Of a stretch of DNA of 64,000 nucleotides, positions 30,339 to 51,200 are shown piece by piece. The stretch is taken from the NCBI GenBank assembly GCA_965208155.1, contig OZ242322.1:2175204-2239203 (forward strand), given 5' to 3'. Each line of letters opens with the position of its first letter. The first letter of the stretch is position 1. The DNA is from Thermodesulfobacteriota bacterium. GTDB lineage: Bacteria; Desulfobacterota_D; UBA1144; Nemesobacterales; Nemesobacteraceae. The notes below the pieces were generated by a model. That model did no database searches and was not told the origin of the DNA. It was given only the letters and a program-made list of their open reading frames with translations. The position numbers and the translations under genes are program-made.

Positions 30339-32057
30339 GTGGAAAAATACGAAACACACACACATGACGTTATAGTTATCGGTGCCGGCGGGGCCGGTCT
30401 TCGGGCCGCCATCGAATCTTCAGCAAAGGGCGCCTCGACCGCACTTATATGCAAATCCCTGCTCGGCAAGGCACACACCGTGATGGCCGAGGGCGGAGTC
30501 GCTGCCGCCTTGGCAAACGTTGACACCAAGGACAACTGGGAAACCCACTTCAAGGACACGATGAAGGGCGGAAAAATGCTGAACAACTGGCAGATGGCCC
30601 TTTACCACGCAAAGGAAGCCCCCGAGAGGGTGCGCGAGCTTGAATACTGGGGAGCGCTTTTTGACAGAACAAAAGAGGGAAGAATAAACCAGAGGGCATT
30701 CGGCGGTCACACCTGGAAGAGGCTTGCACATGTGGGCGACCGGACCGGTCTTGAGATGATAAGGACCCTTCAGGAAAAGGGGATACACTCTGGAATAGAC
30801 GTCTACATGGAATGCACCATAACCCATCTCATAAAAGACGGAGACAGGGTGACGGGAGCCTTCGGCTACTGGAGAGAAAGCGGGAAGTTCGTTCTTTTTC
30901 GCGCAAACGCAATCATTCTCGCAACGGGCGGGGTAGGGAAAGCCTACAAGTACACTTCTAATTCCTGGGAATACACGGGCGACGGCCATTCGATGGCGTA
31001 TGAGGCAGGAGCTGAACTTATAGACATGGAATTCATACAGTTCCACCCCACGGGGATGGTCTGGCCTCCGAGCGTAAGGGGAATCCTTGTTACCGAGGCG
31101 GTGCGCGGAGAGGGAGGCATACTCACAAACAGCGAGGGCGAGCGCTTCATGGAGAAATACGATCCCGAGCGCATGGAGCTCTCAACCCGCGACGTGGTCG
31201 CAAGATCCATATACACCGAAGTGGAGCAGGGCCGCGGTTCTCCCCACGGCGGAGCGTTTCTCGACGTCTCTCACAGGGGAGCCGATTACGTAAAGCGAAA
31301 GCTTCCGAGCATGTACCACCAGTTCATGGAGTTTGCAGACATAGACATAACAAAAGGTCCGATGGAAGTATTCCCGACCACCCATTACGTCATGGGGGGA
31401 GTCAAGGTTGAAGGAGATACCTGCTCAAGCACCGTTCCGGGGCTTTTTGCCGCGGGCGAGGTCGCCGGAGGAATGCACGGCGCGAACCGTCTCGGCGGAA
31501 ACTCCCTCTCAGACCTTCTCGTTTTCGGAAAAAGGGCGGGAGAAGGAGCAGCGGCCTACGCAAGCGGGAAATCCCACTCATCCATACCCGCAGAGCTTGT
31601 TGAGGGATTCGCAAACGAGCTTCACGAGCCTTTTAACAACACACAGGGAGAGAACCCCTACACGATCCACCAGGATCTCCAGGACGTGATGCAGCTCTAC
31701 ATAGGGGTGTTCCGCACAGAAGAAAACATACAAACAGGCATAGACAAGATAGAGGTACTCAAGCAGAGGGCGAAAACGCTCAAGATAGAGGGCTCAGTGA
31801 TGTTTAACCCAGGCTGGCATCTCTGCAGGGATCTTAAGTCGATGCTGATCGTCTCGGAGGCGCTTGCGAGATGCGCGCTTGCGAGAAAGGAGAGCAGGGG
31901 AGCTCACAGCCGGGTCGATTACCCTGAGAGCGACGATGAGGTACTGGGCAAGCTCAATTCCATTGTCTCTTTTAAGGACGGGGCGATGGATGTCGCAACA
32001 CGGCCGATTGTGGAGATGCCCGAGGAGCTTTCGAAACTGTTTACGGAGGATAAGTGA
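30339..32057 (+). CDS. sdhA: Succinate dehydrogenase flavoprotein subunit
   Basis: FAD-binding GAGGAGLRAA. The covalent-FAD His region RSHTVMAEGG. Confidence 0.9.
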   Translation: MEKYETHTHDVIVIGAGGAGLRAAIESSAKGASTALICKSLLGKAHTVMAEGGVAAALANVDTKDNWETHFKDTMKGGKMLNNWQMALYHAKEAPERVRELEYWGALFDRTKEGRINQRAFGGHTWKRLAHVGDRTGLEMIRTLQEKGIHSGIDVYMECTITHLIKDGDRVTGAFGYWRESGKFVLFRANAIILATGGVGKAYKYTSNSWEYTGDGHSMAYEAGAELIDMEFIQFHPTGMVWPPSVRGILVTEAVRGEGGILTNSEGERFMEKYDPERMELSTRDVVARSIYTEVEQGRGSPHGGAFLDVSHRGADYVKRKLPSMYHQFMEFADIDITKGPMEVFPTTHYVMGGVKVEGDTCSSTVPGLFAAGEVAGGMHGANRLGGNSLSDLLVFGKRAGEGAAAYASGKSHSSIPAELVEGFANELHEPFNNTQGENPYTIHQDLQDVMQLYIGVFRTEENIQTGIDKIEVLKQRAKTLKIEGSVMFNPGWHLCRDLKSMLIVSEALARCALARKESRGAHSRVDYPESDDEVLGKLNSIVSFKDGAMDVATRPIVEMPEELSKLFTEDK

Positions 32058-32788
32058 TGTCGGTAGCCAAGCTAAGAGTTTTTCGCGGTGACGCGCAGGG
32101 TGGAGAGGAAAAGGAGTACGAGGTCCCGGTAGATGAGGGAATGGTTGTCCTCGACGCGCTTTTCTACATACAGGCAAACTACGACGGCGACCTGGCAATT
32201 AGATGGAACTGCAAGGCGGCAAAGTGCGGCTCCTGCAGCACCGAGATAAACGGAAAACCGAGTCTTGCATGCAAGACCCGGATGGACACTTTCGCAGAGG
32301 GCGAAACTATTACCGTTTACCCGATCAAGGCGTTTCCCGTGATAAAGGACCTTGTTACCGACGTCTCGTGGAACTACGAAGTAAGCAAGAAAATCCCTCC
32401 GTTTACCCCCGCAGAAGATACCGAGTGGATCATGTACCAGGAGGACGTTGAGAGAGGGCAGGAGTTTAGAAAATGCATAGAGTGCTTCATGTGCCAGAAC
32501 GTGTGCCACATACTTCGCGACCACAACAGAAAAGACGCGTTTGCCGGGCCCAGGTTCATGATAAAGATCGCCGAGCGGGAGATGCATCCCCTCGATGTCC
32601 TTGACAGGAGGGAGTTCGCGCGCGAGGAAGCGGGAGTCGGCTTCTGCAACATCACAAAGTGCTGCACCGAGGTATGCCCCGAGGACATACACATAACGGA
32701 TAACGGAATCATTCCGCTTAAGGAGAGGGTGGTTGACAAGTACTATGATCCGCTTTCCTGGCTTTTAAGGAAGATCAAGGGGAAATAG
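32054..32788 (+). CDS. sdhB: Succinate dehydrogenase iron-sulfur subunit
   Basis: 2Fe-2S (CKAAKCGSC) and 4Fe/3Fe cluster motifs (CIECFMCQNVC, CTKCCTEVCP). Confidence 0.9.
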   Translation: MMSVAKLRVFRGDAQGGEEKEYEVPVDEGMVVLDALFYIQANYDGDLAIRWNCKAAKCGSCSTEINGKPSLACKTRMDTFAEGETITVYPIKAFPVIKDLVTDVSWNYEVSKKIPPFTPAEDTEWIMYQEDVERGQEFRKCIECFMCQNVCHILRDHNRKDAFAGPRFMIKIAEREMHPLDVLDRREFAREEAGVGFCNITKCCTEVCPEDIHITDNGIIPLKERVVDKYYDPLSWLLRKIKGK

Positions 32789-32797
32789 GGGAGAGCA

Positions 32798-33964
32798 TTG
32801 AACGTACACGAATACCAGGCCAAAAAGCTTCTCTCTGATTCCGGGGTCAAGGTTCCGGGCGGACAGGTCGTTTTCAGTGCGGATGAGGTCTCGGAGGTAC
32901 TCGATACCCTTAACTCTGAAAAATACGTGGTAAAAGCCCAGATTCACGCCGGCGGCCGGGGCAAGGGAGGCGGAATAAAGGTAGTTGACAATTCCCACGA
33001 CGCTATGGCTGCCGCAGATGAGATAATCGGCATGAGCCTAGTTACCCACCAGACGGGCCCGGAGGGCAAGACCGTGGGAAGCGTTCTTATTGAGGAAGCT
33101 TCCAGTATAGAAAAGGAGTTCTACCTCGGCATGGTGATTGACCGCTCCCGGGAAAAAGTGGTCGTTATGGGAAGCCCCGAGGGCGGGGTTGAGATCGAGG
33201 AAGTGGCGGCCAAGTCTCCCGAGAAGATAATCAAGGAGCATGTTGATATCTCGCTTGGCGTTCAGCCTTATCAGTGCCGGAAAATCGCTTATTTCATGGG
33301 TCTTGAGGGTGGTGCCGTGAGGCAGGCTGTATCGTTTATTTCATCCCTTTACCGTGTGTTTATCGAAAAGGACTGTTCCCTCGCGGAGATAAACCCGCTT
33401 GTTCTAACTTCAGACGGTAACATAGTGGCTCTTGACGCGAAGATTAATTTTGATGATAACGCGCTTTTCCGCCACCGCGACATCGCAGGGTTAAGGGACA
33501 GGGACGAAGAGGATCCGCTTGAGCTTGAAGCAAGCGACGCGGGTATAAGTTTCGTTAAACTTGACGGAAATATAGGGTGTCTCGTTAACGGTGCGGGGCT
33601 TGCCATGGCTACCATGGATATTATAAAGCACCACGGCGGAGAACCCGCAAACTTCCTTGACGTCGGCGGAGGGGCTACCACGGAGCAGGTTACAAAGGCG
33701 TTTAAGATGATCCTTAGTGATGAGAACGTAAAGGCCATTTTCGTTAATATTTTCGGTGGTATAATGAAGTGCGACACCATCGCCGATGGTATCGTGGAAG
33801 CCGCAGACGAGGTCGGAATAAACGTTCCTTTAGTGGTCAGGCTTGAAGGAACCAACGTTGAAGCCGGAAGGGAGATTCTTTCAAACTCCGGTCTTGACAT
33901 CCAGACCGGGGCCGACATGAAAGAAGCCGCGTCCAAGGTAGTTGAAGCTGCCAAAGCTGCCTGA
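32798..33964 (+). CDS. sucC: Succinyl-CoA synthetase beta subunit (ADP-forming)
   Basis: TTG start. ATP-grasp N-terminus ([12 protein letters not shown]) and a ligase-CoA C-terminal domain. No sucD follows. Confidence 0.9.
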
Positions 33965-34190
33965 TTTCAGCGGGTTGCGATTTAACTTCTAGATTCTTTT
34001 CATTAAATTATGAGCGCGTAATCACCCGTTAGAGCGGCATCTTCTCTGGTTTTTGTGTTAATATATAATCTTGGGTGGGTTTTCCTTTATATGGCATGGT
34101 TTTATTGCCGTTTTTTGACCGGATTTGAAAGGGATACGAGATTTTTTAATTTACTAAAGAATTCCATCGATGTTATCTGAGAACTGAGAA

Positions 34191-35453
34191 GTGAAGATAT
34201 CAAAACTAAGACTTAAGAATATTAAATGTTTCAAAGACACTGAGATTTCGTTTGAGGGCGAAAAAGGCGGTGTTAAAGACTGGTCTCTTTTTGTGGGAGA
34301 TAACGGACAGGGAAAAACAACAATTCTTAGAAGTCTGGCCGCAGGGCTATGTGATAAGGAAGGGGCATCGGGTCTTTTATTGGAATTGTATGGAGAATTT
34401 CTAAGACGAGGTAAAAAGGAAGGGTCTATCGAGATTTGTTTAAGAGATGATGAAGGTGAGCAATATACTATTAAAACTTCTATAAGGGGCGATAACGAGT
34501 CTGTTTCTCAGGATGTCTTTCGGGGTGACCGTGTAGGTAAAAAAGGTACTAATGAGGTTAAAGATTTTAAGAGAGAAGAAATTTTCGCGGTAGCTTACGG
34601 TGCGGGTAGGTCTGTTACAGGTACAGAATCCTATGAAGAATATGCATTGGTCGATTCTGTGTATACGCTCTTTAATTATAAATATGCTCTGCAGAATGCG
34701 GAACTGGGAGCAAGCAGGGTTAAGCTTCATTCCGATGAAGAATGGGGAAAACTTAAAAACATTTTAAAAAGAGTTTTAATGTTTCGGGAAGACGATGAGA
34801 TTTCTCTGGAAAGAACAGGATTATATGTTGAAACTAGAAGAGGTAAAGAGTCTTTTAATACTTTAAGTGATGGGTATAAATCACTGACTTCTGTTATTTT
34901 AGATTTTCTAAGCTGGAATCTGATTTATAGAGAAGATGAAGATTTTGATTTAAGCAATCTTTCAGGAATTTTCATCATTGATGAGCTTGAACAGCACCTC
35001 CACCCAAAATGGCAACGGAGAATAGTAAAAATCCTTTCAGAGCAGTTTCCAAAGGTACAGTTCATATGCAGTACGCATACTCCTATTTGTGCTTTGGGGC
35101 TTAGCGACTTGGAGTGTGAATCTTGGCTTTTCAAAGCTGCTTACGTAAACGGGCATAGTGATATTGAGAAATTTGATCTTCGAGAAGATTTTAGGGGTTA
35201 CAGATCTGATCAGATATTGACTTCGGGCATTTTTGACCTTACAGACACGAGGAGCGTTTCCGTAGAAGATAAACTGGAAACTTATAGAAAGATATATCTC
35301 AAGGAAGAAAGCGAAAGAAGCGAGGAAGAAAAGCTGCAGTTTCATGCTATTGAAGACGAACTGAGAGATTTACCTATGTGGGACAACGAAAAAGAGAAGA
35401 AACAAAGGGAAGAGTTAATCAAATTACTTAAGAGCCAAAAAAAGAAATCCTAA
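34191..35453 (+). CDS. AAA_15/AAA_21-type ABC-like ATPase, Septu PtuA-like (copy 1)
   Basis: GTG start. N-terminal Walker A (FVGDNGQGKTTILRSL). C-terminal Walker B / D-loop / H-loop (IFIIDELEQHLHPKWQRRIV...ICSTHTP). Immediately followed by an HNH gene. Confidence 0.6.
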   Translation: MKISKLRLKNIKCFKDTEISFEGEKGGVKDWSLFVGDNGQGKTTILRSLAAGLCDKEGASGLLLELYGEFLRRGKKEGSIEICLRDDEGEQYTIKTSIRGDNESVSQDVFRGDRVGKKGTNEVKDFKREEIFAVAYGAGRSVTGTESYEEYALVDSVYTLFNYKYALQNAELGASRVKLHSDEEWGKLKNILKRVLMFREDDEISLERTGLYVETRRGKESFNTLSDGYKSLTSVILDFLSWNLIYREDEDFDLSNLSGIFIIDELEQHLHPKWQRRIVKILSEQFPKVQFICSTHTPICALGLSDLECESWLFKAAYVNGHSDIEKFDLREDFRGYRSDQILTSGIFDLTDTRSVSVEDKLETYRKIYLKEESERSEEEKLQFHAIEDELRDLPMWDNEKEKKQREELIKLLKSQKKKS

Positions 35454-35456
35454 ATA

Positions 35457-36200
35457 ATGATAAAGATTGAACGTGGAAGGCCCCCTAAAAACACCGCTAT
35501 AGACAAGAGAAGAGAAAGAGAGCTTCGGAAAATTAGGAAATTAGTAAAGTCTAGAGAATTAAAATCTAAGCATTTTGAAAATTTGTGGTCAGACCCAAAA
35601 GTTAAAGACTTCCTATACGAGTCTCAACATGGTAAATGCTGTTACTGTGAAAGAAAACGAGACAAAAGAGAGTCTGACGTAGAGCACTTTCGCCCCAAAG
35701 CTGAAGTTAAAGAAGCCGGAGAAGGCCATCAGGGTTACTGGTGGCTTGCCTATAGCTGGGAGAACTTACTTGTAGCTTGCAAAACGTGTAATCAAGAGTA
35801 CAAGAAATCAAAATTCCCACTAAAGAACAAACGGAAAAGAGCCTACACAGAAAATTGTGACCTTGGCGAGGAAGAACCATTTTTGGTCAACCCGCTAGAA
35901 GAAAAACCGGAATTGCTTATAGATTATGATCTTAGGGAAACTAGGCTTATGGCGAAAGCCGTTGGAAGGTGTGAACGAGGTGAGAGAACAGTCAATGAAC
36001 TGACAGGAATAAACGATAGAAAAGTGATGGAGAAAAGAGCAGACAAACTCAAGGATTATCGGGTGTGGGCATATTTAAAGAATAATGGGAGCGATGAATT
36101 AAAATCAGAGGCCGATGAACGTCTGCGGGAATACGTCTCTCCTTGCAGTGAATTTTCAGGATTTGCAAGATTCTATTTTCAGAAGGAAGGATGTCTTTAA
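35457..36200 (+). CDS. HNH endonuclease, Septu PtuB-like (copy 1)
   Basis: CCYCE...VEHFRPK...ACKTCN HNH core. Starts 3 nt after the ATPase stop. Confidence 0.65.
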   Translation: MIKIERGRPPKNTAIDKRRERELRKIRKLVKSRELKSKHFENLWSDPKVKDFLYESQHGKCCYCERKRDKRESDVEHFRPKAEVKEAGEGHQGYWWLAYSWENLLVACKTCNQEYKKSKFPLKNKRKRAYTENCDLGEEEPFLVNPLEEKPELLIDYDLRETRLMAKAVGRCERGERTVNELTGINDRKVMEKRADKLKDYRVWAYLKNNGSDELKSEADERLREYVSPCSEFSGFARFYFQKEGCL

Positions 36201-37354
36201 TGAAAGACTCCTTCCCGCTAGAACAGTCGGCCGAAACGCCTGCATTTATCTACAATTTAAGTGAAGTAAAAAAAAGGGCGAAACTTCTTTCCCAAATAAA
36301 AAACAAATCAAACTGCAAAATTCTTTATTCTGTAAAACCATTACCCTTGTACAGAGTCTTAGAGGAAATGGAATCCTTGGATGGTTTTTCTGTAAGTTCT
36401 TTTTTTGAAGCTGAATTAGCAAAAAAAGCCTGTAAAGACAAAAAAGAAATTCATTTCATCAGTCCTGGAATTAAGAGTGAACAATGGGAGGATATCTCAA
36501 CCGCTGTCAATTATTTAACCTTTAATTCCTTAGAGCAGTTGTCCTGTTTTGAAACTAGGCTCAAAAAGCAAAGCTACGGTATAAGAGTCAATCCGGAAAT
36601 CTCTTTTATTACAGATCCCAGATACAATCCCTGCCGTGAGTTTTCAAAGCTCGGTGTTCCCATTGCTCAGATTAAAAATAAGATTTCTGACGACCCGGAT
36701 TTTTTTAAAAAAATAGAGGGAATTCATTTTCACACAAACTTCGAAAGCAGAGATTTTTCTCATTTAACTGAGACATTTTCAAAGCTGAAGACCGAACTTG
36801 CGGACGAGCTTAAAAGGTTCAAGTGGATTAACTTGGGCGGCGGCTATCTCTTTGATGAATCGGAAAATCTATCCCTTTTTTATGAACTTATAGATGAACT
36901 TAACGATAATTACAATTTTGATGAAATTATTATCGAGCCTGGTACCTTCCTAGTTAGAGACAGCGGATATCTGGTTTCTTCTGTTATTGATCTTTTTCAG
37001 AGGGATGGAAAAAATGTTGCCGTTTTAGACACCACTGTGAATCACCTTCCGGAAGTCTTTGAATACCAATACGAACCTGATGTTCTAGGGGATGACTTCT
37101 CCAACAAGAATGAGTATATATTAGCCGGGAGCAGTTGTCTGGCAGGGGATGTTTTTGGTGTGTATCGTTTTGAGAACGAATTGGAACTGGGTTCAAAAGT
37201 GATCTTTGAGAAAGTGGGAAGTTATTCCCTAGTTAAGGCGCACACGTTTAATGGGATTAATCTTCCTGATGTTTATTGTCTTGAAGATGATGCTGGACTG
37301 AAAAGGGTGAAAAGCTTTACACTTGAACAATATGTGCACTATTACGGAGGATGA
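36191..37354 (+). CDS. Carboxynorspermidine/carboxyspermidine decarboxylase-like PLP enzyme (Orn/DAP/Arg decarboxylase fold)
   Basis: 387 aa. AFIYNL..., the conserved ILAGSSCLAGDVFGVYRFE and FNGINLPDVY blocks align with NspC. Overlaps the HNH stop by 10 nt. Confidence 0.65.
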   Translation: MSLMKDSFPLEQSAETPAFIYNLSEVKKRAKLLSQIKNKSNCKILYSVKPLPLYRVLEEMESLDGFSVSSFFEAELAKKACKDKKEIHFISPGIKSEQWEDISTAVNYLTFNSLEQLSCFETRLKKQSYGIRVNPEISFITDPRYNPCREFSKLGVPIAQIKNKISDDPDFFKKIEGIHFHTNFESRDFSHLTETFSKLKTELADELKRFKWINLGGGYLFDESENLSLFYELIDELNDNYNFDEIIIEPGTFLVRDSGYLVSSVIDLFQRDGKNVAVLDTTVNHLPEVFEYQYEPDVLGDDFSNKNEYILAGSSCLAGDVFGVYRFENELELGSKVIFEKVGSYSLVKAHTFNGINLPDVYCLEDDAGLKRVKSFTLEQYVHYYGG

Positions 37355-37357
37355 TTC

Positions 37358-38731
37358 ATGCGATTTTTAGAAAGAGAAATATCTTTTCCTAAAATTCAAG
37401 ACAATAGAGATTTGCTGTCATATATTGAAGAGCAAACGTCTTCTTGTTTGAGTGAAGAAGGCTTGCTACCTATAAGGATTGCTGTTACTGACAGCTCGGG
37501 CTCAGATTATAAGTGCGAAGTTGGTGCTTTGTGCACGGAAGACACAAGCAGCTTTGAGGAAGCGAAGCTAGTATTTGAGTTCAAGAAACGAAAGTTTGAA
37601 AACACCAAAAATTTTAATGTCGTTTTCTTGATTCCTACTGGAATTGGTTGTGAAATCGGGGGTCACGCTGGAGATGCCACCCCGGTTGCAAGACTTTTAT
37701 CTTCCAGTTGCGATAACCTCATCACTCATCCGAATGTTTTTAACGCTTCTGACCTCAACGAGATGCCCGAGAACAGTCTCTATGTTGAAGGGAGTACAAT
37801 TTGTCGTTTGATGATGGGAACTGTAGGTCTCCAACCCGTTAGGTCTAACAAAATTCTTGCCGTTATAGATAAAAATGAATATAAGATTTTTGAAAACGCT
37901 GCTGTTAATTCTATCAACGCTGCCAGGGCAGTCTTGGGAATAGAATGTTCCGATATAGTGAAATTAGACCCCTCAATAACTATGGAATCCGAATATTCGT
38001 CTTCCCAAAGAGCTGTCGGCACCATTGACGGAATCGATAACTTGTTCTCCATCTTGAAAAAGTACGAAGGAAGTTATGACGCAGTTGCCATCTCGTCGAT
38101 AATCAATGTCCCCGAGCATTATCACAAGGAGTATTTTCGTTGCAGGGGAGAGATGGTTAATCCTTGGGGAGGGGTAGAAGCCATGCTTACCCATGCTGTT
38201 TCTTACAAGCTCAACATTCCTTCGGCCCATTCCCCGATGTTTGAATCTCCTAAAGTTGCTCATCCAGACCCCGGAGTTGTTGAAGCCAGGATGTCAGCGG
38301 AAGCCGTCTCCACAACTTTTTTCCATTGCGTTTTAAAAGGACTTCATAAAAGTCCTAAAATTATTACCGACCCGGACATGTTTCATTATGACGATATTAT
38401 CTCGGCAAAAGACATTTCCTGCTTGGTTATTCCTGATGGCTGTCTGGGTCTTCCTACTCTTGCAGCTTTGGAACAGGGAACAAAAGTTGTTGCAGTAAAG
38501 GAAAACAAAAACCTGATGAAAAATGATCTCAACGAGCTTCCTTGGGATACCGGACAATTTATTCAAGTGGAAAACTATTTAGAGGCTGCCGGAGTTTTAA
38601 ACTCTATTAAAAATGGAATTGATCCTTCTTCGATAAGACGACCTTTTAAAACTTTAGATCCTTTTGGAACTTCAGATATTTCTCGTGATTCTGAGTATCA
38701 GAGGCCAGCTTTGAAACAGGTAAAAGGATAG
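37358..38731 (+). CDS. Hypothetical 457-aa protein, no recognisable family (glycine-rich VVFLIPTGIGCEIGGHAGDATP motif)
   Basis: Long uninterrupted ORF. RBS GGAGGA sits upstream. Starts 3 nt after the decarboxylase stop. Codon style matches the neighbouring island genes. Confidence 0.5.
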   Translation: MRFLEREISFPKIQDNRDLLSYIEEQTSSCLSEEGLLPIRIAVTDSSGSDYKCEVGALCTEDTSSFEEAKLVFEFKKRKFENTKNFNVVFLIPTGIGCEIGGHAGDATPVARLLSSSCDNLITHPNVFNASDLNEMPENSLYVEGSTICRLMMGTVGLQPVRSNKILAVIDKNEYKIFENAAVNSINAARAVLGIECSDIVKLDPSITMESEYSSSQRAVGTIDGIDNLFSILKKYEGSYDAVAISSIINVPEHYHKEYFRCRGEMVNPWGGVEAMLTHAVSYKLNIPSAHSPMFESPKVAHPDPGVVEARMSAEAVSTTFFHCVLKGLHKSPKIITDPDMFHYDDIISAKDISCLVIPDGCLGLPTLAALEQGTKVVAVKENKNLMKNDLNELPWDTGQFIQVENYLEAAGVLNSIKNGIDPSSIRRPFKTLDPFGTSDISRDSEYQRPALKQVKG

Positions 38732-38821
38732 GTTTCAGAGAGGTTACCACTCTTCATTTTATATTGAGTGTGCAGCTATCTGTTACAAAAGGTGTTACGT
38801 TTTAAGTTGAGAGATAAGAGA

Positions 38822-40123
38822 ATGCATATAACCAGTCTATATTTAGAAAATATAAAATGCTTTGAAAAGCTTACTTATAAATTCCAGGGTGATGGGGGAG
38901 CTTCGCTCGTCATTGCCGGGGATAACGGCGATGGTAAATCTACAATACTACGGAGCATTGCAATTTCTTTATGTGATCAGTGGTCTGCGGCAGGATTGCT
39001 AAGAGAACTGTCAGGAGAATTTATACGTGATAGATGTGACGAAGGAGTAATCAAACTCGGCTTAATATCTGGCAAGAAAAGAAAGAAAAGGTTCGAGATT
39101 GTTACACGTATAAGGTGGGATAGTAAAGAAACATATGAATACCCTTACAGGGAGATTAATCAGATCAAAACTAAGACTAGGGAGCCTGAAGAAATTGAAG
39201 ATTCCAACTTTGATTGGAAAGCGATATTTGCAACAGCTTATGGGTCTGGATTAAGAACTGTGGGAACACAAGATTTTCAGCACTACTTTACTGGCGATTC
39301 TATTTACTCTTTATTTAGGGACGATGTAACTTTGCAAAACCCCGAGTTGGCCATACGACGGATTTCCACTGGTGTTGTAGAAAAACCAACCGCAATCGAC
39401 TCTCAGGAAGAAATAGAGGCTTTTCAAAAAAATTTATTGGATTGGCTTGGTGAGATTTTGATACTTGATAACAAGTCTCTGGAAGTTCACGGAAATGGCA
39501 TTTTTGTTTGCACAAAAGGCAGTAAAACCAAAGTTCCCCTTGTAGCTACAGGCGACGGGTACAAAGCTCTAACGGCCTTGATTCTGGATATGCTCTCATG
39601 GTGGTTTCTCTACGCTTTCTATGGAGCAAAAACTGGAAGCAGAAATAAGGCGAAAATAACTTTGGATAGTCTTAAAATGATGAAAGGAGTTGTAATTATT
39701 GACGAAATAGAACAACATCTTCATCCGAAGTGGCAGAGCAAGATATTACCTTCCTTAGAAAAGAATTTTCCTCAAGTGCAATTTATTGTTGCTACCCATT
39801 CTCCATTAGTTGTGTCCTCCTCAGAAGATGATGTTTTAGTTATAGAAGATGGTCGGGCAAGAAAAGAGAAGTTATATGGCTGGCTTCCAGAAGACGTCTA
39901 TATACAGATGGGTAGAGAAGACGAAAGACCGCCCGAAATTGCAGAAAAAATATCTGAACTTGAGTTGCTGTATAGAGAAAAAATAAGTGGCACTATAAGC
40001 AAACAGGATGAAAAGAGATTCAATAGTATCTACGAACAACTTAAGGTTGAATTGCCTTCGCACGACCCAGTCCTGCAGACAATCAAATTTAATGTAATGC
40101 GTAGGTCTATACAAGATGATTGA
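38822..40123 (+). CDS. AAA_15/AAA_21-type ABC-like ATPase, Septu PtuA-like (copy 2)
   Basis: Walker A (IAGDNGDGKSTILRSI). C-terminal VVIIDEIEQHLHPKWQSKIL...VATHSPLVVS. Paralogous to the ATPase at 34191. Confidence 0.6.
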   Translation: MHITSLYLENIKCFEKLTYKFQGDGGASLVIAGDNGDGKSTILRSIAISLCDQWSAAGLLRELSGEFIRDRCDEGVIKLGLISGKKRKKRFEIVTRIRWDSKETYEYPYREINQIKTKTREPEEIEDSNFDWKAIFATAYGSGLRTVGTQDFQHYFTGDSIYSLFRDDVTLQNPELAIRRISTGVVEKPTAIDSQEEIEAFQKNLLDWLGEILILDNKSLEVHGNGIFVCTKGSKTKVPLVATGDGYKALTALILDMLSWWFLYAFYGAKTGSRNKAKITLDSLKMMKGVVIIDEIEQHLHPKWQSKILPSLEKNFPQVQFIVATHSPLVVSSSEDDVLVIEDGRARKEKLYGWLPEDVYIQMGREDERPPEIAEKISELELLYREKISGTISKQDEKRFNSIYEQLKVELPSHDPVLQTIKFNVMRRSIQDD

Positions 40124-40126
40124 ACC

Positions 40127-40780
40127 ATGAGATTGGTAAATAGAGGCGAGGAACCAGCTACCCTGAAACGAAATTCAAAAAAATGGACGGAAGAGTTGCT
40201 CGATGCTCATGAAAAAGGGGATCAGAACGCAATTGAAAAAGCAGAAAACAGATACAGAAAGCCCGAAATTCAAAAAGCTCTAAAAGATATGTACGGCGAT
40301 CTTTGTTGCTATTGCGAGGGAACCGTGAGTGCTAATAGCTTTGGGCATATCGAACACCGAAAGCCCAAGAGAGAGTTTCCAAAATATGCGTTCAATTGGG
40401 ATAATCTTCATTGGGTTTGTTGGAAATGTAACAATGCAAAAAGTGACAAATGGAATAGGGACAATCCAATTTTAGACCCCACTGCTGATACAGAAATAAT
40501 TCCGACTCATCTTAAACCTATACCTGGTCTTGAAACTATTAAGTTTGATTCTGAAACGGGCTCAGGAAAAACCACAATAGAGCATGCTGATTTGAACAGG
40601 TTAGATTTGGCAAAAGCAAGACGCAAAGTTTGTAATTATGCTTTGGCGTTAAAAAATACGCTTGAAGCAGGGGAAGAATTTTTGAGCGATATAAACATTG
40701 AGAACATTAAGAACCTGATTAATGAGATGAGAGTAGAAGAGTACGGCAGTTGTGTAAAAGAAATTCTTGAACAATCCTGA
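40127..40780 (+). CDS. HNH endonuclease, Septu PtuB-like (copy 2)
   Basis: CCYCEG...IEHRKPK...CWKCNN. Starts 3 nt after the ATPase stop. Confidence 0.65.
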   Translation: MRLVNRGEEPATLKRNSKKWTEELLDAHEKGDQNAIEKAENRYRKPEIQKALKDMYGDLCCYCEGTVSANSFGHIEHRKPKREFPKYAFNWDNLHWVCWKCNNAKSDKWNRDNPILDPTADTEIIPTHLKPIPGLETIKFDSETGSGKTTIEHADLNRLDLAKARRKVCNYALALKNTLEAGEEFLSDINIENIKNLINEMRVEEYGSCVKEILEQS

Positions 40781-40991
40781 TCAAAGGGATTCCAAAATCA
40801 TTGAGCATCTGTGTCAGCGGATCGTTAAAACCCTTCCAGGGATCAGCAAATCCTCTATGTCCTCCGAGCTCTAACTTGCCAGTGGTCTCTTGATTCTTTG
40901 GAGGGAGATGCTTGTCAAAAAGCTCCCTAAACAGATCTTTTGTTTCTTTTTGACCTTTCGGTTCAAAAGCCTTATTTTTTCTACCCATAGT

Positions 40992-41053
40992 GGCGTATCC
41001 TCCTATTGATTTATTTGGCTGAATTCAAATCAACCGGATACGCCGCTTTTTTT
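40992..41053 (+). terminator. Candidate intrinsic terminator / structured junction after the six-gene operon
   Basis: 9-bp inverted repeat ggcgtatcc ... ggatacgcc (with a nested tgaattca palindrome) followed by gcttttttt. Confidence 0.3.
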
Positions 41054-41088
41054 CAAGTTCTCCATACGCCAGTTTTAACTATATCTCT

Positions 41089-41547
41089 GTGGAAGGGGGC
41101 AAGAGGGTTATGTTCACCCGTACCACGGACCTTGTGCAGAGACTCCAGATGGCCCACAGAGAGCTTCGTATGGAGAGTATGCTTGAGCGACTCAACCGTT
41201 ATGACCTGCTGATTCTCGATGATCTTGCGTACGTACGCAAGGACAGAGACGAAACCAGGGTGCTGTTTGAGCTTATATCGAACCGTTATGAGAGCAGATC
41301 ACTGCTTATCACGGCGAATCAGCCCTTTGAAGAATGGAAAAACGTGTTTCCTGACGAAAATACGGCTGTGGCGGCAGTGGATCGCCTTGTACATCACTGC
41401 GTAATCCTTGAAATGAACGTGGAGAGCTACAGATTGCGTCATGCTATGGAGAAAAACAAGGAGGAGGTGAAGAAAAAACGGGGCAGACCCGCGAAATACG
41501 CTACCGAGAATAACTCGGAGGGTCTGACCTCGAAAACTGGAGATTGA
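41089..41547 (+). pseudogene. IS21-family IstB helper ATPase, C-terminal fragment (no Walker A)
   Basis: Aligns with the IstB C-terminal two-thirds (DLLILDDLAYV...LITANQPFEEW...DRLVHHCVILEMNVESYRL). The N-terminal ~110 aa are missing. Confidence 0.6.
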
Positions 41548-41594
41548 TATCTGTCAGATATGCCGGTATCGTCTCACAATCAGCGACACCCAGA

Positions 41595-41714
41595 GTGTCA
41601 TCTTGATTGTCGCAACAGTGCCATCTTGATTGTCGCGCTACACGTCCGAATTCGCTCGGAATAGGTGTCCGAATTCGCTCGGAATCACTGTCCGAATTCA
41701 GTCGTAATATGCAA
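41595..41714. repeat. Five ~19-bp direct repeats at 23-bp periodicity (two sequence classes) ending in a 27-mer shared with 43671-43697
   Basis: Units start at 41595, 41618, 41644, 41667 and 41690. The first two are gtg(t/c)catcttgattgtcgc. The last three are gtccgaattc(g/a)(c/g)tcg(g/t)aat. Confidence 0.8.
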
Positions 41715-41834
41715 CCAGTCCGCTTGCGATAGCAAGCGTAGATATCTATCTCGAAGAGGAGCAAGAGAACGCGTAGGCACTCTATCTCTCCTTGGGGATA
41801 ATATACTTAACTATCCAAAGATAGTTTTCTGTAG

Positions 41835-42224
41835 TTAATTGAGTTTTATGGCGTTTTTTAATATTGCCTTAGTTGCATTCTTTTGGGTTCTGTGGAAGTA
41901 GTAGGCAAGCCCAGCGAATAGGAAAGAGCATAGGATTGGCAATACAATCTTTTGTTCCCACCATATAATCTGGGTCTCAGGGGACCGCTCAAGAAGGTTC
42001 CAGATATAAGAAAGTCCAAAGAAAAGAAAACCGGTAAATAGGGACCAGCATGTTGTTGAGGCGGTATTGAAAGCATTTAGTTGCTCAAGTTCTATTTCTC
42101 TGACTCCGAACACCTTGTCTTTTCTCCCCCAATAATCGCTCTCAACACGAGCTCCCAGCCTTTCAGAAGGACTCCCTGAATCATTCATTGGACTCCTCCC
42201 TCTCGGACTTGGATATAAGCTCAA
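41835..42224 (-). CDS. Hypothetical small membrane protein (2 predicted TM)
   Basis: 129-aa ORF in AT-rich DNA. Overlaps the upstream small ORF by 44 nt. Confidence 0.3.
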   Translation of the reverse strand: MSLYPSPRGRSPMNDSGSPSERLGARVESDYWGRKDKVFGVREIELEQLNAFNTASTTCWSLFTGFLFFGLSYIWNLLERSPETQIIWWEQKIVLPILCSFLFAGLAYYFHRTQKNATKAILKNAIKLN

Positions 42225-42477
42225 TTCCGTATTTGCTTAAAGCATCGAGTAAAACTAAGGTAGCAGCATAAGATGAGAGATATCCACATGTCAAGCAAAC
42301 GGTCAGAAAAGCCGGATAGTAGACCTTGTCGCTTACGCTTGGAACTTTGATTAGTTCATCCATCAAGGTGTATTTGTCTTTCTTGCATTTTGAGCAAACA
42401 TTGAGTCCGTGCTTGTCAATCCACCTCTTTATCTTTTCTTGGTCCTCTTGCGAGAGTTTTTCCAGCTTTTCAGCCAT
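42181..42477 (-). CDS. Hypothetical small protein with CxxC...CxxC
   Basis: 98 aa (CSKCKK...CLTCGY). First gene of a two-gene minus-strand unit. Confidence 0.3.
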   Translation of the reverse strand: MAEKLEKLSQEDQEKIKRWIDKHGLNVCSKCKKDKYTLMDELIKVPSVSDKVYYPAFLTVCLTCGYLSSYAATLVLLDALSKYGIELISKSEREESNE

Positions 42478-42611
42478 AAAATCTTTCCTCTTGTTTTAAA
42501 TTTGGTTGCGGGGATTATACCCGGCGGACTGGACTTCTTGAGTTTCCGGTGATGCTTCCACTCCCACAATTTTAGCCGGTACAGCCCCGGAAGCAACCTA
42601 AGTCCTTTCTT

Positions 42612-43268
42612 GTGGGGAGGGAATGCGCTGAGAGGGAGAGCAGGAAGCAGCGGCGTCTGGTACGCGACGCTTGCTTCAGACTCAGGGCCGATCTGGTAGA
42701 TATTGACTACGGACATTCCCGTAATCTGAGAAAGGCTCAGATAGCCGAGCTTGCCCATGGAGACTGGGTAGAGCGGGGTCGCAATCTTCTCATAACGGGT
42801 CCTTGCGGAAGCGGCAAGACATGGATAGCTTGCGCTCTGGGTCATAACGCGTGTCTGAAGAGGGATATCGGTTCGTTACTACAGGATCTCAAGACTGTTT
42901 CTGGTTCTCTCCCAGGCAAAGGTGGACGGAAGCTACAACAAGCTTCTCTCAAAACTGGCAAGAGTGAACTTCTTATCGTAGACGACTGGGGTCTTGAGGC
43001 TGTGACCACGGCCCAGAGATATGATCTGATGGAGATAATGGATGACCGTTACGGGGAGAGTTCTACTGTGGTGATAAGTCAGCTTCCGGTAAGCGAGTGG
43101 CATGGCATCATAGGGGACAACACTGTTGCCGACGCGATCCTTGACAGGATCGTTCACAACTCTCATCGTCTTGAGCTCGGTGGGGAGTCGATGAGGAAAA
43201 TCGTTGCGGAGAAGGAAGCGAAACAGGAGTTTGTAAAAGGAAAAGAAGAGAATAGAGATGATTGTTAG
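42612..43268 (+). pseudogene. IS21-family IstB helper ATPase, N-terminally truncated
   Basis: Walker A GPCGSGKT, Walker B LLIVDDWG, and a C-terminal DRIVHNSHRLELGGESMR. Only ~30 residues precede the DIDYGH(=DFDF) region. No istA nearby. Confidence 0.5.
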
Positions 43269-43484
43269 GCTCTGGGGGCATGAGAGAAAACAGAGGTGAT
43301 TTTTAGGAGAAAAAACAGACTTTTTACTCGTCGTTTGACAGGGCAATTCTGAACGTGTTAGAGTCTGTTTTGAAGAAGAAAAAAATGGGGTACACGTGTT
43401 CACTTTCCCTCGGAATTGGTGTTCAAATAAATCGTAATACGCACCGGGCATTGATAATAGCTCCGAATAAAGAAAGGATTTGAA

Positions 43485-43556
43485 ATGAAGCTAGTAAAAA
43501 TAAAGTTAAGTAATTTCAGGTGCTATCAATCAGAGACGGAATTTGTATTAGACTGA
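43485..43556 (+). pseudogene. 23-codon N-terminal stub of another AAA_15/OLD/PtuA-type ATPase
   Basis: MKLVKIKLSNFRCYQSETEFVLD* has the same N-terminal signature as the two PtuA-like genes (MKISKLRLKNIKCF...). It is cut off before Walker A. Confidence 0.3.
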
Positions 43557-43874: not shown

Positions 43875-45121
43875 ATGCTTGAAGCAGATTGTACGCGACA
43901 CGTTGAATCGCGATTGAGAGAGGTCATTAAGGATTCTCCTGTCGTGTTGATTCAGGGCCCCCGCCAGTGCGGAAAAACTACCCTTGCCCGCATGGTGGCA
44001 GGACCGAGGGCTATCACTACATAAGCCTTGATGAAGAGGATGTTCGTGCCGCCGCCGAGGCGGATATTGCGGGATTTGTAAAGACTTTGCCCAAGCGCGT
44101 AATTCTGGATGAGGTACAGAAAGTGCCGGAGATATTCTCATCCATAAAGCTTGCGGTTGACCGCGACCGTGCTCCAGGGCGTTTTATACTGACAGGTTCG
44201 GTAAGCGTGCTGCATGTTCGCGGGATAACAGATTCTCTTGCCGGTCGCATGGATATAATCAGGTTGCATCCTTTTTCACAAAGTGAAATTGAGGGGAACA
44301 CGCCGGGTTTTCCGGAAGCTCTGTTCTCCTCGGAGTTTGATATATGGCAAAGTGGGAGAGATCTGTCGGAGATAATTGTTATGGATAAACTGGCTGCCGG
44401 CGGATACCCGGTTGCCCTTCAGCGCTCTGCGGAGAGGCGTGCCGACTGGTACAGAAAGTATATAGAGGTGCTCGTGGAGCATGATTCTCGTGACATTGCC
44501 GCAATACGTTCATCCGGGATTCTGTCACAGCTGCTTTCCCTTGCTGCCGCTCAGACCGCGAAGCTTCTTAACGTAACCGGTCTTTCCTCTTCTTTTAAAC
44601 TTAGCCGCAATACGATTCATGACTACCTTCTTCTTCTGGAAAAAATGTTTTTGCTTGAACGGCTGCCCGCGTGGCACTGCAATCACCTCAAGCGTCTGGT
44701 CAAGGCTCCTAAACTTCACGTTACGGATACGGGTGTCGCTTGCGCGCTTATGAGGATGAATAGCGCCGCACTCTCGGCGAACAGGCCTTTTTACGGCCAT
44801 CTTCTTGAGACCTGGGTGCTGCAGGAACTGCGTCGCCAGTTAAGCGGACACGCAGAGCCGCATATCTTCTCTCACTATCGGGAAAAGGATGGGGCGGAAG
44901 TCGATATCGTTATAGAACGCGGGGCAACAGCTCTTGCCGGGGTTGAAGTCAAGGCGTCGGCTACTGTGAGAGGTTCGGATTTTCGGGGATTGCGCAAACT
45001 CAGGGCTGCAGCGGGCGATCGTTTTTCCTGCGGAGTCGTGCTTTATAACGGAGAAAGAAGTCTGCGGTTTGGTGCGGGACTCTATGCGGTGCCTCTGCAG
45101 TCACTCTGGGCGACGGAATAA
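43875..45121 (+). pseudogene. DUF4143-type AAA ATPase, frameshifted
   Basis: The Walker A part (MLEADCTRHVESRLREVIKDSPVVLIQGPRQCGKTTLARMVAGPRAITT*) ends at a stop near 44023. The rest (from GYHYISLDEEDV...) continues in another frame to 45121. Confidence 0.6.
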
Positions 45122-48205: not shown

Positions 48206-51200
48206 CTAAGAAGGTGGTTCTAACGATATCCGCCACGTGTTCAGTACTTGGCACTGATGATTCTCGCTTATCCGGTTAGTCAAGTACTCCAGAAGATCTT
48301 CCTGCCTCGGCTGACCGAAAACAAGACGATAAACAGCAAGCATTCTCTTGAGTCGGCGGAAATGCGGTTCTTCTTTGCTGTAGGGAAGAATCGGTACATG
48401 CCGTTCAATACTCGCGCCTTCCTTAAGTTCGTAAAGCCAATACGGGATTAAATCACTCGCCCCGGTTGGACGGTCTTTCTTTGCTAATTCAAACAGGCAA
48501 GACCATGGGTCGCCTTGCCTGTTCCATTTGCCCCTTAAGGCACTCAATCCATACGCCTTGGCTATGTTTTTTCGAACCGCATGTCCCTTGTATCGTTGGA
48601 TTCGTCCTTCCCTTTGCTCTAAATCAACAGGATTGCTCGGCAGGTTCCAGTGAATTACCGAATGACACCAAGTATGGAAATCCAAGCCTTCCTGCCCAAT
48701 GGACGTCGAGGCGAGAACAAACGGTCTGAACGGTGAGTTAAAAGCATCCCGCACGGCGTCAGCCCTAACGACAGCACCTCTGTCGTCTTTCAGTTCACCA
48801 AACCGCAAAGCAAATCGACACCGCGTGTTATAGTCTTTAAGCTCAATCTTCTGTGACTCCGGACGGACAATCACTTCATCTAGCTGTAACCGAGACGTGC
48901 GTATAGAGAGCGAGGAACCTATTGAATCGCCGATGGTTTCAACCCGTTCGGTCTCTGGCTCGTCAATAACGCCAAGAGACTCGACAAGGCAATGCACTTG
49001 TTCATCCAACAATGACTGGATATTTCCTTCAAGGCAATGCTGAAGCGAAAGCCTCCAGTAAGACTCATCTCGTCTGTTTCCTCGAAGAAGTGCAATGCTT
49101 TCCGGAAGATTAAACAAAGTTCGAAAACCTTCAGAAATCCGAACCGCACCACAAAGAAGTTCCGAAGAGTCCAAATTAAGCGAAGGAGATTGTCGCCGAA
49201 GCGCGCGCAAGGCGCAGACACTTGGCGCCGCCACGGCCATCAGGCTTAGAACCTGGAGAAGGTCCGCCGGGGGTCGTCCAAGTGGTGAATCGATAGCGTG
49301 ATCCATGGTCTGGCGAAAAAGTTCCAAATGTTCTCTCAGTCCTTCCACTCTATCACTCGAGTCCTCTTTTGCTATTGAAAACCACCCTTTTTCATCATCA
49401 AGAAGCCAATGCTTTATGTCGGGAAACCTCTTCCCGTCCAGAAGCGCTGGCGCCGCCCAGTACCATCGCTGATCCTCCGGTCCGCTGGCAGGAGCCTCAA
49501 CAAGCAACTGATTAAGTGACGGTCTGATAAGCTCCGCGGCACTATTGAGCAACTCTGCGGCCGAGATAAGCTTATCCTTCTGGTGAGATACAGCGATGAT
49601 CAAAGGGTCTATCAGCATCGCTAGAGCCGGACTCGGGTACATCAAAATCAGCACGGGCATTCCGGTCGGGCGGTTTTCTGAGCCGCGGGAGTATCGAAGA
49701 AGGGGGCGCAGTTCGTCATAGAGCTGATCGTGGGTAATTGGTTTACGTAAACCGGAAAGCATCTTCCGCTCCGCCTCGTACGAGCAGAGAGAAGCTATGG
49801 CGTCAGGAACAACGTTCCACGCGGAGAAGACCAGAGATTTCGTTATGTCAGGTATATCGGCATAAGAGCCACCGGGTCTGCTGTACGGCATAGAGGGCGG
49901 CAGCCAGAGAATTTTCCAGAGTCCCCGATTTATCGTGAGATCGAACAGGTTTCTCATCCTCGGATTGGACGGTGACACTTCCCGATATGATTGAATGTCA
50001 TCCTTGTGTAAAAGATGGTCTGCGTCTGCCCGCAAAGCCTCAATCAGTTCTTCTGGCGCATTCTCACACTGGGCTTCCAGTTTCTGGCGGAATTCATACC
50101 TCCTCAGAAAGTTTATGAGATAGGGGCTTGATTTCCAGTATTCGATGATGTCGCGCGCGCCGACGCTTGACGCGACCCTGTCGGCCAAAACAGCCCCGTG
50201 AATATCCCGTGGTTCCAACGCTACTTCTTGTGGAAATTCTGAGAACATGGCGTCGCGCGAAGGCGTCATGCCCACTCTTTCCGTACGGCACATCACCCTG
50301 ATGAGTTTTGACTGGAGAACATCACGAGCGTTTGATATAGCCGTATCGTCGTCAGATCCGAGAGAATAAAGAGACTGCCTGAATGCTTGGATGTCCCTTT
50401 TGATGCCGTCTATAACCGTCTGGGGATCAACCGACTCGGAATGAGAGAGAAATCCCAATGTCTTCAGAAAGTCTGGGTAATGGTCATCATCCCGTTCATG
50501 GTCAAGAGAAAGCATCTTGTACGGAGTGGCCGACAAAAGCAGCGTTTTGACATTCTCGTATTGAAACAGCTTGTGAGCCAGCCGGTTTTTGTGGTTTTGA
50601 GAGTCTTCTTGATTTTTGGGATCCAGCAGGCTCCTAAACCTCTGAAACTCATCGAGTATGATAAGATCCGGCTCAAGCATATCAATGCTCATCTCGGCAA
50701 GGCGAAACCGCAATTCCGAAACAAGCCAGAGCCGTTCAGGGTCACCCCAAAGAATCCGCCTTCTGGATCGCGCGCAGAAATTCTTAATTTTCTCGTAAAA
50801 CTCCCGGTCCTCGCTTACATTCTTTACGAACTCGTCACGGATATCCTTATCAAGGCTTTCAGGTTTCCATTTGCGTGTCCACCACCACCAGTTTTCATCA
50901 CTCACGCGGCACTGGAGCAGCCGCCTTAAGCCCGCGGGGCTAATATTCAGCCTGCCTTTCAGCAGAAAGTGTATCAGCGCTCGCTCTTTAACCTTTCCAT
51001 CTCTCGATCTGGGATCGAAGCTTGTTCCCGGCGTGAGGCTCACGTAATTTACGCGGTTCTTTCGAATATCGGAGATATCTATTGGGAGAAGGGAAAGACG
51101 TGTAGATCTTTCGAATTTCTGTTCTCCCGAAACATTAAGTCGACGGAGGTTTTGAGACGCGATGCTCATATTCGAGCAGACATAGACAATATCGATCCGA

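Follow-up and report, generated by a model that had tools for sequence, protein, structure and literature searches.

We analysed a 64,000-nucleotide (nt) stretch of a Thermodesulfobacteriota bacterium genome (contig OZ242322.1 of assembly GCA_965208155.1, positions 2,175,204 to 2,239,203; hereafter the window), in which a block of plus-strand genes encodes an ATPase and an HNH nuclease of the Septu type (PtuA1 and PtuB1), an NspC-like decarboxylase dependent on pyridoxal phosphate (PLP), a 457-amino-acid (aa) protein and a second ATPase-nuclease pair (PtuA2-PtuB2). The functional unit in this block is a mobile cassette of the first four genes (34191-38731, with upstream sequence from ∼34018), and the same order, PtuA-PtuB-decarboxylase-DUF3326 on one strand, was found in 30 loci besides the window, from at least five phyla. 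Judged by its genes, a Septu system with a conserved biosynthetic accessory module appears not to have been described previously: PADLOC, the Septu literature consulted and full-text searches on defence systems together with polyamine decarboxylases or DUF3326 contained no description of the cassette. We see about an even chance that it is a new form of Septu whose nuclease is controlled or assisted by a polyamine-like product. Few nuclease-based defences are as common as Septu. The PtuAB complex, where it stands alone, is an HNH nuclease that is inhibited by ATP and stays inactive before infection; how this silence is kept and then broken is still being worked out. To our knowledge, the sole known elaboration of Septu is its capture by retrons. 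The cassette, if correctly read, would be a second, widespread elaboration of PtuAB that places the effector under metabolic control and links polyamine-type chemistry to immunity.

A preliminary description of this DNA, made from the sequence without database searches, had assigned AAA_15/AAA_21 and HNH domains to both pairs and an Orn/DAP decarboxylase fold to the third gene, and Pfam returned the same domains. It had also called both pairs Septu-like, which agrees with the matches to PADLOC models for PtuA (E = 1e-59 for PtuA1 and 5.9e-53 for PtuA2, both full-length) and PtuB (E = 1.5e-51 for PtuB1 and 5.5e-46 for PtuB2). The catalytic motifs are intact. Across 11 members of the PtuA clade the Walker A, Walker B, signature and H-loop motifs were all preserved, with G36, N38, G39, G41, K42, T44, D264, E265 and H296 invariant, and across 13 members of the PtuB clade H77, N103 and both CxxC pairs were invariant; the HNH and zinc-finger residues are conserved in PtuB2 as well. 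The closest solved relatives of PtuA1 were PtuA (8ee4) and the PtuA of retron Ec78 (∼1e-14, mainly over the C-terminal half). Scores against TIGR02646, the putative HNH endonuclease of retron systems (cutoff 52.15 bits), were 47.5 for PtuB1, below the cutoff, and 59.7 for PtuB2, above it, and neither pair reached the retron Ec78 equivalogs NF041760/NF041761 (PtuA, 124 and 123 bits against a cutoff of 500; PtuB, 51.6 and 50.6 bits against 150, for the first and second pair respectively). Pfam detected no reverse transcriptase (RT) domain among the six proteins of the block, and Rfam gave no match over 33500-41500 at E ≤ 1, so no RNA element or retron RNA was found. On these profile matches we regard both pairs as distant members of the Septu family, and PtuA1-PtuB1 as a divergent Septu-type ATPase and HNH nuclease, translationally coupled to the two enzymes, for which phage protection is predicted only. 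PtuA1 and PtuA2 are ∼35% identical, which rules out a recent duplication of the two pairs.

The limits of the cassette were set by a nucleotide comparison of positions 32000-43500 with all fetched loci. All Dadabacteria-like relatives shared the sequence up to a breakpoint at 38739, 8 nt past the stop codon of the DUF3326 gene, and then diverged. At the other end, the match to cassettes located elsewhere in the genome (L005, L007, L011-L013, L034 and L095) began at 34018-34190, with starts at 34018 in L007 and 34085 in L034, both of which lie in other genomic contexts. Only L001-L003 continued into PtuA2-PtuB2, where nucleotide identity was 75% compared with 87-91% in the cassette, and among sister genomes that share the sucC context the slot following DUF3326 held Kiwa (L006, L008, L009 and L096) or other systems (L004); in L096 the Kiwa genes (KwaA/KwaB) were followed by JAB/E2/ThiF genes. 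These data replace the six-gene operon proposed in the preliminary description with a conserved mobile unit of four genes, and they remove its view of two paralogous pairs bracketing the enzymes, an arrangement that arose because of an accident of the variable defence slot. PtuA2-PtuB2, which matches the two-gene Septu definition and has no conserved neighbour, is a separate, standard Septu next to the cassette; PtuA1-PtuB1 does not fit a definition of two genes only, since the decarboxylase and DUF3326 follow it in the 30 other loci. Were the linkage only a matter of hitchhiking, the four-gene mobile unit would still stand, as would the variable slot for defence systems that follows sucC in Dadabacteria-like genomes.

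The block had also been placed exactly where sucD should follow sucC. The first half of this statement stands, since the block begins 226 nt after sucC, with a sigma-70 factor and DnaK on the far side of the island; the second half is an expectation drawn from canonical operons, and no sucD homologue was found anywhere in the 64-kb window. Insertion between sucC and sucD is therefore not demonstrable here. A distant relative (L014) has a canonical overlapping sucC-sucD pair. The order sucC then cassette was also observed in L001, L004, L006, L008, L009 and L096, with no sucD in the fetched flanks.

To describe the recurrence of the cassette we used the best 80 of 542 genome loci encoding DUF3326, many of the linked ones being related to each other; genes in these loci were simple open reading frame (ORF) calls, and trees were built by neighbour joining (NJ) without support values. 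A PtuA and/or PtuB homologue lay directly upstream on the same strand in 21 of the 80 loci. Linked loci came from Dadabacteria-like genomes, a Rhodothermales metagenome-assembled genome (MAG), Neomarinimicrobiota, Phycisphaerae, Bacteroidota, a deltaproteobacterial MAG and an unclassified MAG, in many different flanking contexts, and all but one of the Dadabacteria-like loci with an intact upstream side were PtuAB-linked. The most distant linked loci, with PtuA identities of 32-39%, mostly had the order PtuA-PtuB-AdoMetDC-like-DUF3326, and L029 and L102 were of the NspC type. The junction between PtuB and the decarboxylase measured −13 to +14 nt in 15 of 16 loci. PtuAB-linked DUF3326 proteins clustered together in the NJ tree, and pairwise distances of PtuA and DUF3326 were correlated (r = 0.93, a value inflated because it is driven largely by two main groups).

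The linkage was also found from the PtuA side, where the enzyme pair was present in seven of eight informative contexts at 41-76% identity. With the PtuA1 of the window as query, the cassette was present in L096 (76%) and L095 (68%), and the hit in L094 (62%) was an orphan PtuA in another island. With the marinimicrobial PtuA of L023 as query, it was present in L098 (55%), L099 (50%), L100 (48%), L101 (45%) and L102 (41%); the contig of L103 (42%) ends after PtuB and is uninformative, and L099 is not independent because it lies on the same contig as L047. The NJ tree of PtuA contained one large clade in which nearly all members were followed by the enzyme pair. A metagenome scan with the PtuA alignment, whose patterns were too generic for a census, gave at least 8 distant loci, and the distant PtuAB loci L086-L089 were without the enzyme pair. 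The preliminary description had named, as a ground for giving up its proposal, that homologues of the two middle genes never occur with ATPase/HNH pairs elsewhere. They do so in tight operons, in several phyla and in both search directions, and that ground therefore falls away.

The decarboxylase has the alanine-racemase fold, with the Pfam domains Orn_Arg_deC_N and Orn_DAP_Arg_deC, aligns over its full length to the solved carboxynorspermidine decarboxylases 9eaf (E = 1.3e-59) and 3n29, and keeps K49, the GGG loop, EPG and CLAGD. Its score against TIGR01047 (nspC) was 269.6 bits, under the equivalog cutoff of 409.05, and the adjoining gene, in the window and in 41 related loci, encodes DUF3326 and not a CANSDH/CASDH dehydrogenase. 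For annotators this means that an 'NspC' beside DUF3326 is not a standard norspermidine gene. In the 80 loci the DUF3326 gene almost always had a decarboxylase gene beside it, of one of two kinds: the NspC-like PLP enzyme in 41 loci and, in 33 loci, a protein of 120-160 aa with the pyruvoyl-dependent AdoMet_dc fold, which is unrelated to that of NspC. All 33 of the latter share the motif GTSAVQFILTSxIVIHTLD (e.g. L023:9557-9943 and L047:9621-9995) and keep the processing serine and IHT, and 30 of them lack the canonical Glu-Ser, for which the consensus is Thr-Ser. This pattern suggests a distinct pyruvoyl decarboxylase subfamily with a substrate other than AdoMet. The occupation of one slot by two unrelated decarboxylases argues for DUF3326 plus decarboxylation as the selected function, and selection appears to act on the function, PtuAB and DUF3326 staying in place while the decarboxylase is exchanged. 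We predict that the decarboxylase of the window is the first enzyme of an amine-forming module.

The 457-aa protein, which the preliminary description had left without a family, belongs to DUF3326 (PF11805; E = 2.6e-95 over residues 88-426; 319.7 bits where the gathering cutoff is 25, with positions 2-336 of the 337-position model aligned). DUF3326 comprises ∼1,170 clusters at 50% identity, and an alignment of 51 sequences contained ∼80 invariant columns, mostly polar residues, Gly or Pro. Ahead of the core is an 85-aa N-terminal domain of beta-alpha-beta-beta-alpha topology, and the AlphaFold2 model of the protein has a predicted local distance difference test score of 81 and a predicted template modelling score of 0.84. 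Many members of the family are 320-350 aa long, start at about residue 86 of the query and thus are without this domain; the long form was present in all 80 fetched loci, and the additional domain could serve in ligand binding or in interactions. We found no phage-encoded DUF3326 protein.

The sole functional data point for the family so far is PavB, the DUF3326 protein of the pavettamine pathway (2026 preprint, 10.64898/2026.06.12.731819), and the cassette now offers a concrete, testable way into the family. PavA holds a PLP decarboxylase with the alanine-racemase fold, that of NspC, and PavA and PavB are both needed for the triamine N-(5-aminopentyl)pentane-1,5-diamine; in the authors' proposal, PavA and PavB act together to decarboxylate lysine and to link it to cadaverine by condensation (10.64898/2026.06.12.731819). 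The decarboxylase and DUF3326 genes of the window show the pairing that defines PavAB, a DUF3326 gene adjoining that of a PLP decarboxylase with the alanine-racemase fold, and the likeness to the PavA/PavB of Burkholderia sensu lato is one of family assignment. PavA is a 1119-aa fusion with a Rieske oxygenase domain and the Pav cluster includes PavC, a JmjC-type hydroxylase, neither of which occurs in the cassette; the Pav cluster in turn has no ATPase or nuclease, unlike the cassette. By analogy with PavB, DUF3326 would be the second enzyme of the amine module, and a polyamine-like product is predicted. The earlier suggestion that the middle genes make an amine thus fits the PavA/PavB precedent.

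The reading that we give an even chance would work as follows. DUF3326 and the decarboxylase would together condense an amine with a unit derived from an amino acid, giving a carboxylated amine whose decarboxylation leaves a polyamine-like amine, as the PavA/PavB analogy implies. DNA and tRNA have polyamines among their abundant ligands, and phages manipulate polyamines. The amine would be the control input of PtuAB, most likely as a ligand that keeps the nuclease off or as a shield of its nucleic-acid target. An infection that stopped synthesis of the amine or sequestered it would free the ATP-regulated HNH nuclease onto tRNA or DNA, and the freed nuclease would arrest the infected cell. The amine would thereby play the part that RT and multicopy single-stranded DNA (msDNA) play in type I-A retrons, in which PtuAB is toxic alone and restrained by RT-msDNA (PMC12819146). 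Septu and retron-Eco7 work via cleavage of tRNA-Tyr (PMC13096335).

Among known systems, type I-A retrons (Septu type II; Ec78/Eco7) are the best analogue, with the same co-option of PtuAB by an extra conserved operon module. The retron module consists of RT and the non-coding RNA that gives msDNA, compared with two small-molecule enzymes downstream of ptuB in the cassette, and it restrains the toxic nuclease until infection, the counterpart of which in the cassette would be control by a metabolite. In PADLOC, Septu type II is the retron form and no enzyme-bearing variant is described (PMC8565338). Septu type I of the Doron systems has the same tight order of an AAA_15/AAA_21 ATPase followed by an HNH protein, and PtuA2-PtuB2 fits it completely; it differs from the PtuA1-PtuB1 clade, which adds the decarboxylase and DUF3326 that are absent from described Septu. 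The CANSDH/CASDH and NspC/CASDC pathway shares a two-step logic of a condensing enzyme followed by a decarboxylase, but its partner is a CANSDH of the saccharopine dehydrogenase type, in contrast to DUF3326 in the cassette, whose decarboxylase scores below the NspC cutoff. Operons with PspA, YjfC-type, DUF350 and DUF1190 genes in Alphaproteobacteria carry the same decarboxylase-DUF3326 module after their own gene set; none of the PspA, YjfC, DUF350 or DUF1190 genes is present in the window, where the partner of the module is a nuclease system in a defence island.

Linked and unlinked modules differ in their surroundings. The 128 ORFs flanking PtuAB-linked cassettes matched 210 PADLOC families at E ≤ 1e-10, compared with 68 families, nearly all of them single hits, for the 116 ORFs flanking unlinked decarboxylase-DUF3326 pairs. 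Families in the linked flanks include Kiwa (in three flank sets overall), type IIG restriction-modification, AbiEi, DrmMI, mad2, E1-E2, IetAS and a type I methyltransferase. Individual linked loci are accompanied by AbiE and nSTAND genes (L095), MmeI and nSTAND (L100), or an SNF2-PLD-FHA protein and a D5 primase (L099). In the window, an AAA_14/DUF4143 ATPase at the far end of the island matches the PADLOC candidate PDC-S01 (E = 6e-138).

Several observations weigh against a product of the enzymes acting on the nuclease. In most of the sampled DUF3326 loci the decarboxylase-DUF3326 pair is without PtuAB, and its neighbours there include a YjfC-type glutathionylspermidine synthase homologue, PspA, DUF350, DUF1190, DUF4178 and a membrane protein; the pair thus probably serves polyamine or envelope physiology in its own right. 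Of the 30 linked loci, 5 have a broken PtuA or PtuB and none a damaged enzyme gene, and one further locus (L016) has lost PtuAB and keeps the pair, so the enzymes do not need the nuclease. This asymmetry of decay fits an antitoxin-like role and independence equally, and it is merely suggestive because of ascertainment bias and the short target that the decarboxylase offers. Neither the decarboxylase nor the DUF3326 protein matched any PADLOC model, in line with the earlier view that the middle genes lie outside described defence systems. Searches with the fold of DUF3326 yielded no functional clue: a profile search of PDB sequences gave no significant relative, Foldseek of the model against PDB gave at best a borderline lumazine-synthase-like subdomain (E ∼ 1e-3), and a structure search of BFVD gave nothing significant.

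The company of the PtuAB-free pair falls into a few recurrent types. In Alphaproteobacteria (L020, L022, L025, L027, L032, L035-L037, L046, L056, L063-L065 and L073) it ends a yjfIJKLMC-like cluster composed of DUF350, DUF1190 and a YjfC-type homologue, often with PspA, DUF2170 and a K+ channel. A study of the phage shock protein (PSP) response ties the PspA-type gene set to polyamine metabolism and reports its repeated coupling to polyamine genes (PMC11237479); DUF3326 may be the missing polyamine-forming step of these alphaproteobacterial operons. In seven loci from mixed phyla (L024, L028, L042, L060, L062, L080 and L082) the gene immediately upstream of the decarboxylase encodes a multi-pass membrane protein (cluster c11) of ∼360 aa, in which transmembrane segments at the N and C termini enclose a central coiled coil. 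It had no Pfam or PADLOC match, and it could be an alternative effector in the place of PtuAB. A broader version of the metabolite idea, in which the product of the pair is an immune or stress signal or an 'antitoxin metabolite' wired to PtuAB, to the c11 membrane protein or to PspA/YjfC sets, is speculative, and we hold it to be possible though unlikely. If true, systems built on the shared producer module would form a new class of conflict systems based on small molecules, and DUF3326 would gain its first cellular role. In Dehalococcoidia/Chloroflexota (L039, L041, L043, L049, L054, L057, L061, L067, L070 and L083) we observed the pair, in some cases with its order reversed, ahead of genes for an unknown protein of 475 aa and a SecA-like protein of 1093 aa, and other Dehalococcoidia had DUF4178 and DUF350 beside it.

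One explanation of the linkage is that two independent modules, a normal Septu and stand-alone polyamine enzymes that benefit the envelope or nucleic-acid physiology of the cell, were fused once into a single transcription unit and co-travel without functional interaction. The preliminary description had foreseen that the middle genes might prove to be such a stand-alone polyamine fragment, and this is borne out insofar as the pair is widespread alone, and not insofar as its linkage to PtuAB recurs across phyla. Co-travel accords with the polyamine and membrane-stress neighbourhoods of the PtuAB-free pair, with the persistence of the enzymes where PtuA or PtuB decays (the pair standing alone in L016), with the lack of a PADLOC match for either enzyme and with the placement of linked DUF3326 proteins in neighbouring clades, which is compatible with a single ancient fusion followed by transfer. 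However, the linkage has persisted in several phyla down to 32-39% PtuA identity, with overlapping stop and start codons, and through the exchange of the decarboxylase for one of unrelated fold; the enzymes accompany almost all of the PtuA clade members that were sampled, and defence genes normally turn over much faster than so fixed a neighbour relation. We rate co-travel as a tentative alternative with a low but real probability. A reading outside immunity, in which the cassette is a polyamine-linked stress operon and the ATPase-HNH pair its nucleic-acid partner (e.g. in repair or RNA processing), could draw on the stress-type alternative partners of the module, on the coupling of PspA operons to polyamine genes in the PSP literature, on L098, where the cassette lies beside DUF2617, DUF4178, TelA and YtxH, and on the distance of this PtuAB clade from any characterised PtuAB. 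It is made improbable by the full-length matches to many PADLOC PtuA and PtuB models, by the much higher frequency of defence-island locations for the cassette than for unlinked modules, and by its mobile, patchy and AT-rich character.

The six-gene model of the preliminary description, in which both PtuAB pairs would use the product of the middle enzymes, has in its favour that the six genes share a strand, follow each other closely and are succeeded by a single hairpin, that PtuA2 falls inside the DUF3326-linked PtuA clade beside the Phycisphaerae locus L026 in the NJ tree, and that an extra PtuAB pair stands beside the enzyme pair in L012 (in tandem, upstream) and L004 (inverted, downstream). 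We consider it very improbable, given that the conserved unit stops short of PtuA2, that the second pair is confined to L001-L003 at lower identity, the slot otherwise holding Kiwa or other genes, and that a gap of 36-90 nt separates DUF3326 from PtuA2. Hardly credible, in our judgement, is a selfish origin in which PtuAB is an addiction module or homing-type element and the enzyme pair captured cargo. The cassette does move between sites as a unit, HNH nucleases include homing enzymes, and the PtuAB of retron Ec78 is toxic once it escapes control, but no target-site repeats or homing-like insertion pattern was seen, the sampled contexts held no case of the same PtuAB clade with different cargo, and we know of no stand-alone Septu that is mobile by itself. 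Control or assistance of PtuAB by a polyamine-like product of the enzyme pair thus remains our preferred reading of the cassette.

The features of the window are collected in the table. All six plus-strand ORFs of the block were found at the positions first reported for them, and the junction lengths given at that time were likewise recovered: in order, 3 nt, a 10-nt overlap, 3 nt, 36 or 90 nt depending on whether PtuA2 starts at its GTG or its ATG, and 3 nt. From sequence context the ATG is the likelier start. G+C content is 0.35-0.45 across 34000-41000 compared with 0.50-0.58 upstream, in agreement with the earlier remark that the block is AT-richer than its flanks. The stretch upstream of PtuA1, kept even in L007, contains a perfect TATAAT near 34066 and is probably the promoter of the cassette, travelling with it. 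The T-run hairpin noted after the operon folds at −23.3 kcal/mol (z = −4.5; stem 40989-41000/41036-41047 followed by the U-run), with none of 200 shuffles as stable; a strict consensus scan called no terminator in the block, missing this hairpin because its interior part is too large. The hairpin is also the 5′ region of an 89-aa minus-strand ORF with a strong ribosome-binding site (AGGAGG); this ORF shares 62 nt with the 3′ end of PtuB2 and has no PADLOC match.

Positions of the cassette and of other features in the window
Feature	Position	Strand	Remarks
sucC	32798-33964		upstream neighbour of the block
Conserved upstream region of cassette	34018-34190	+	nucleotide homology to L007 and L034; TATAAT
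PtuA1	34191-35453	+	420 aa ORF
PtuB1	35457-36200	+	247 aa ORF
NspC-like PLP decarboxylase	36191-37354	+	387 aa ORF
DUF3326 protein, long form	37358-38731	+	457 aa ORF
PtuA2	38768 (GTG) or 38822 (ATG) to 40123	+	451 aa counted from GTG 38768
PtuB2	40127-40780	+	217 aa ORF
89-aa ORF	40719-40988	−	
Hairpin and U-run, likely intrinsic terminator	40989-41055	+	209 nt past PtuB2
IstB remnant (IS21 family)	41089-41547	+	profile positions 119-236
Two overlapping small ORFs	41835-42477	−	98 aa and 129 aa
IstB remnant (IS21 family)	42612-43268	+	profile positions 39-232
AAA_14/DUF4143 ATPase	43967-45121	+	PADLOC candidate PDC-S01
ZacA-ZacB-ZacC	48206-54415	−	complete locus

A second PtuAB pair beside one enzyme module was seen in three cases, all in the same broad clade: PtuA2-PtuB2 of the window, the tandem pair upstream of the enzymes in L012 (L012:4285-6293) and the inverted, diverged pair downstream of them in L004 (L004:11499-13886, minus strand). 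Another neighbour, found beside PtuAB-linked cassettes only, is a gene for an MfnB-like 4-HFC-P synthase (PF04476). In L021 (6694-7431), L023 (6549-7286) and L026 (6682-7449) it immediately precedes PtuA in the same orientation, so that enzymes border the nuclease pair on either side, and it is divergent in L085 (4831-5580) and L101 (4185-4895). MfnB is an aldehyde-forming enzyme of methanofuran biosynthesis, and the MfnB-like enzyme may supply a substrate to the DUF3326 module.

Downstream of the block the island contains two different remnants of IS21-family IstB, with no IstA. Between them are two overlapping small minus-strand ORFs, which may be a small two-gene system: the 98-aa product has a zinc-ribbon-like CxxC...CxxC pattern and a weak match to PD-Lambda-2_A (E = 3e-4), and the 129-aa product looks membrane-bound. 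A second defence locus of the window, a complete ZacA-ZacB-ZacC set with G+C content near that of the host, is located between dnaK and a pyruvate dehydrogenase E1 gene; its three proteins match PADLOC at E = 1e-129, 1e-170 and 0, respectively, and in Pfam ZacA has DUF6361, ZacB no family, and ZacC DEAD and Helicase_C domains.

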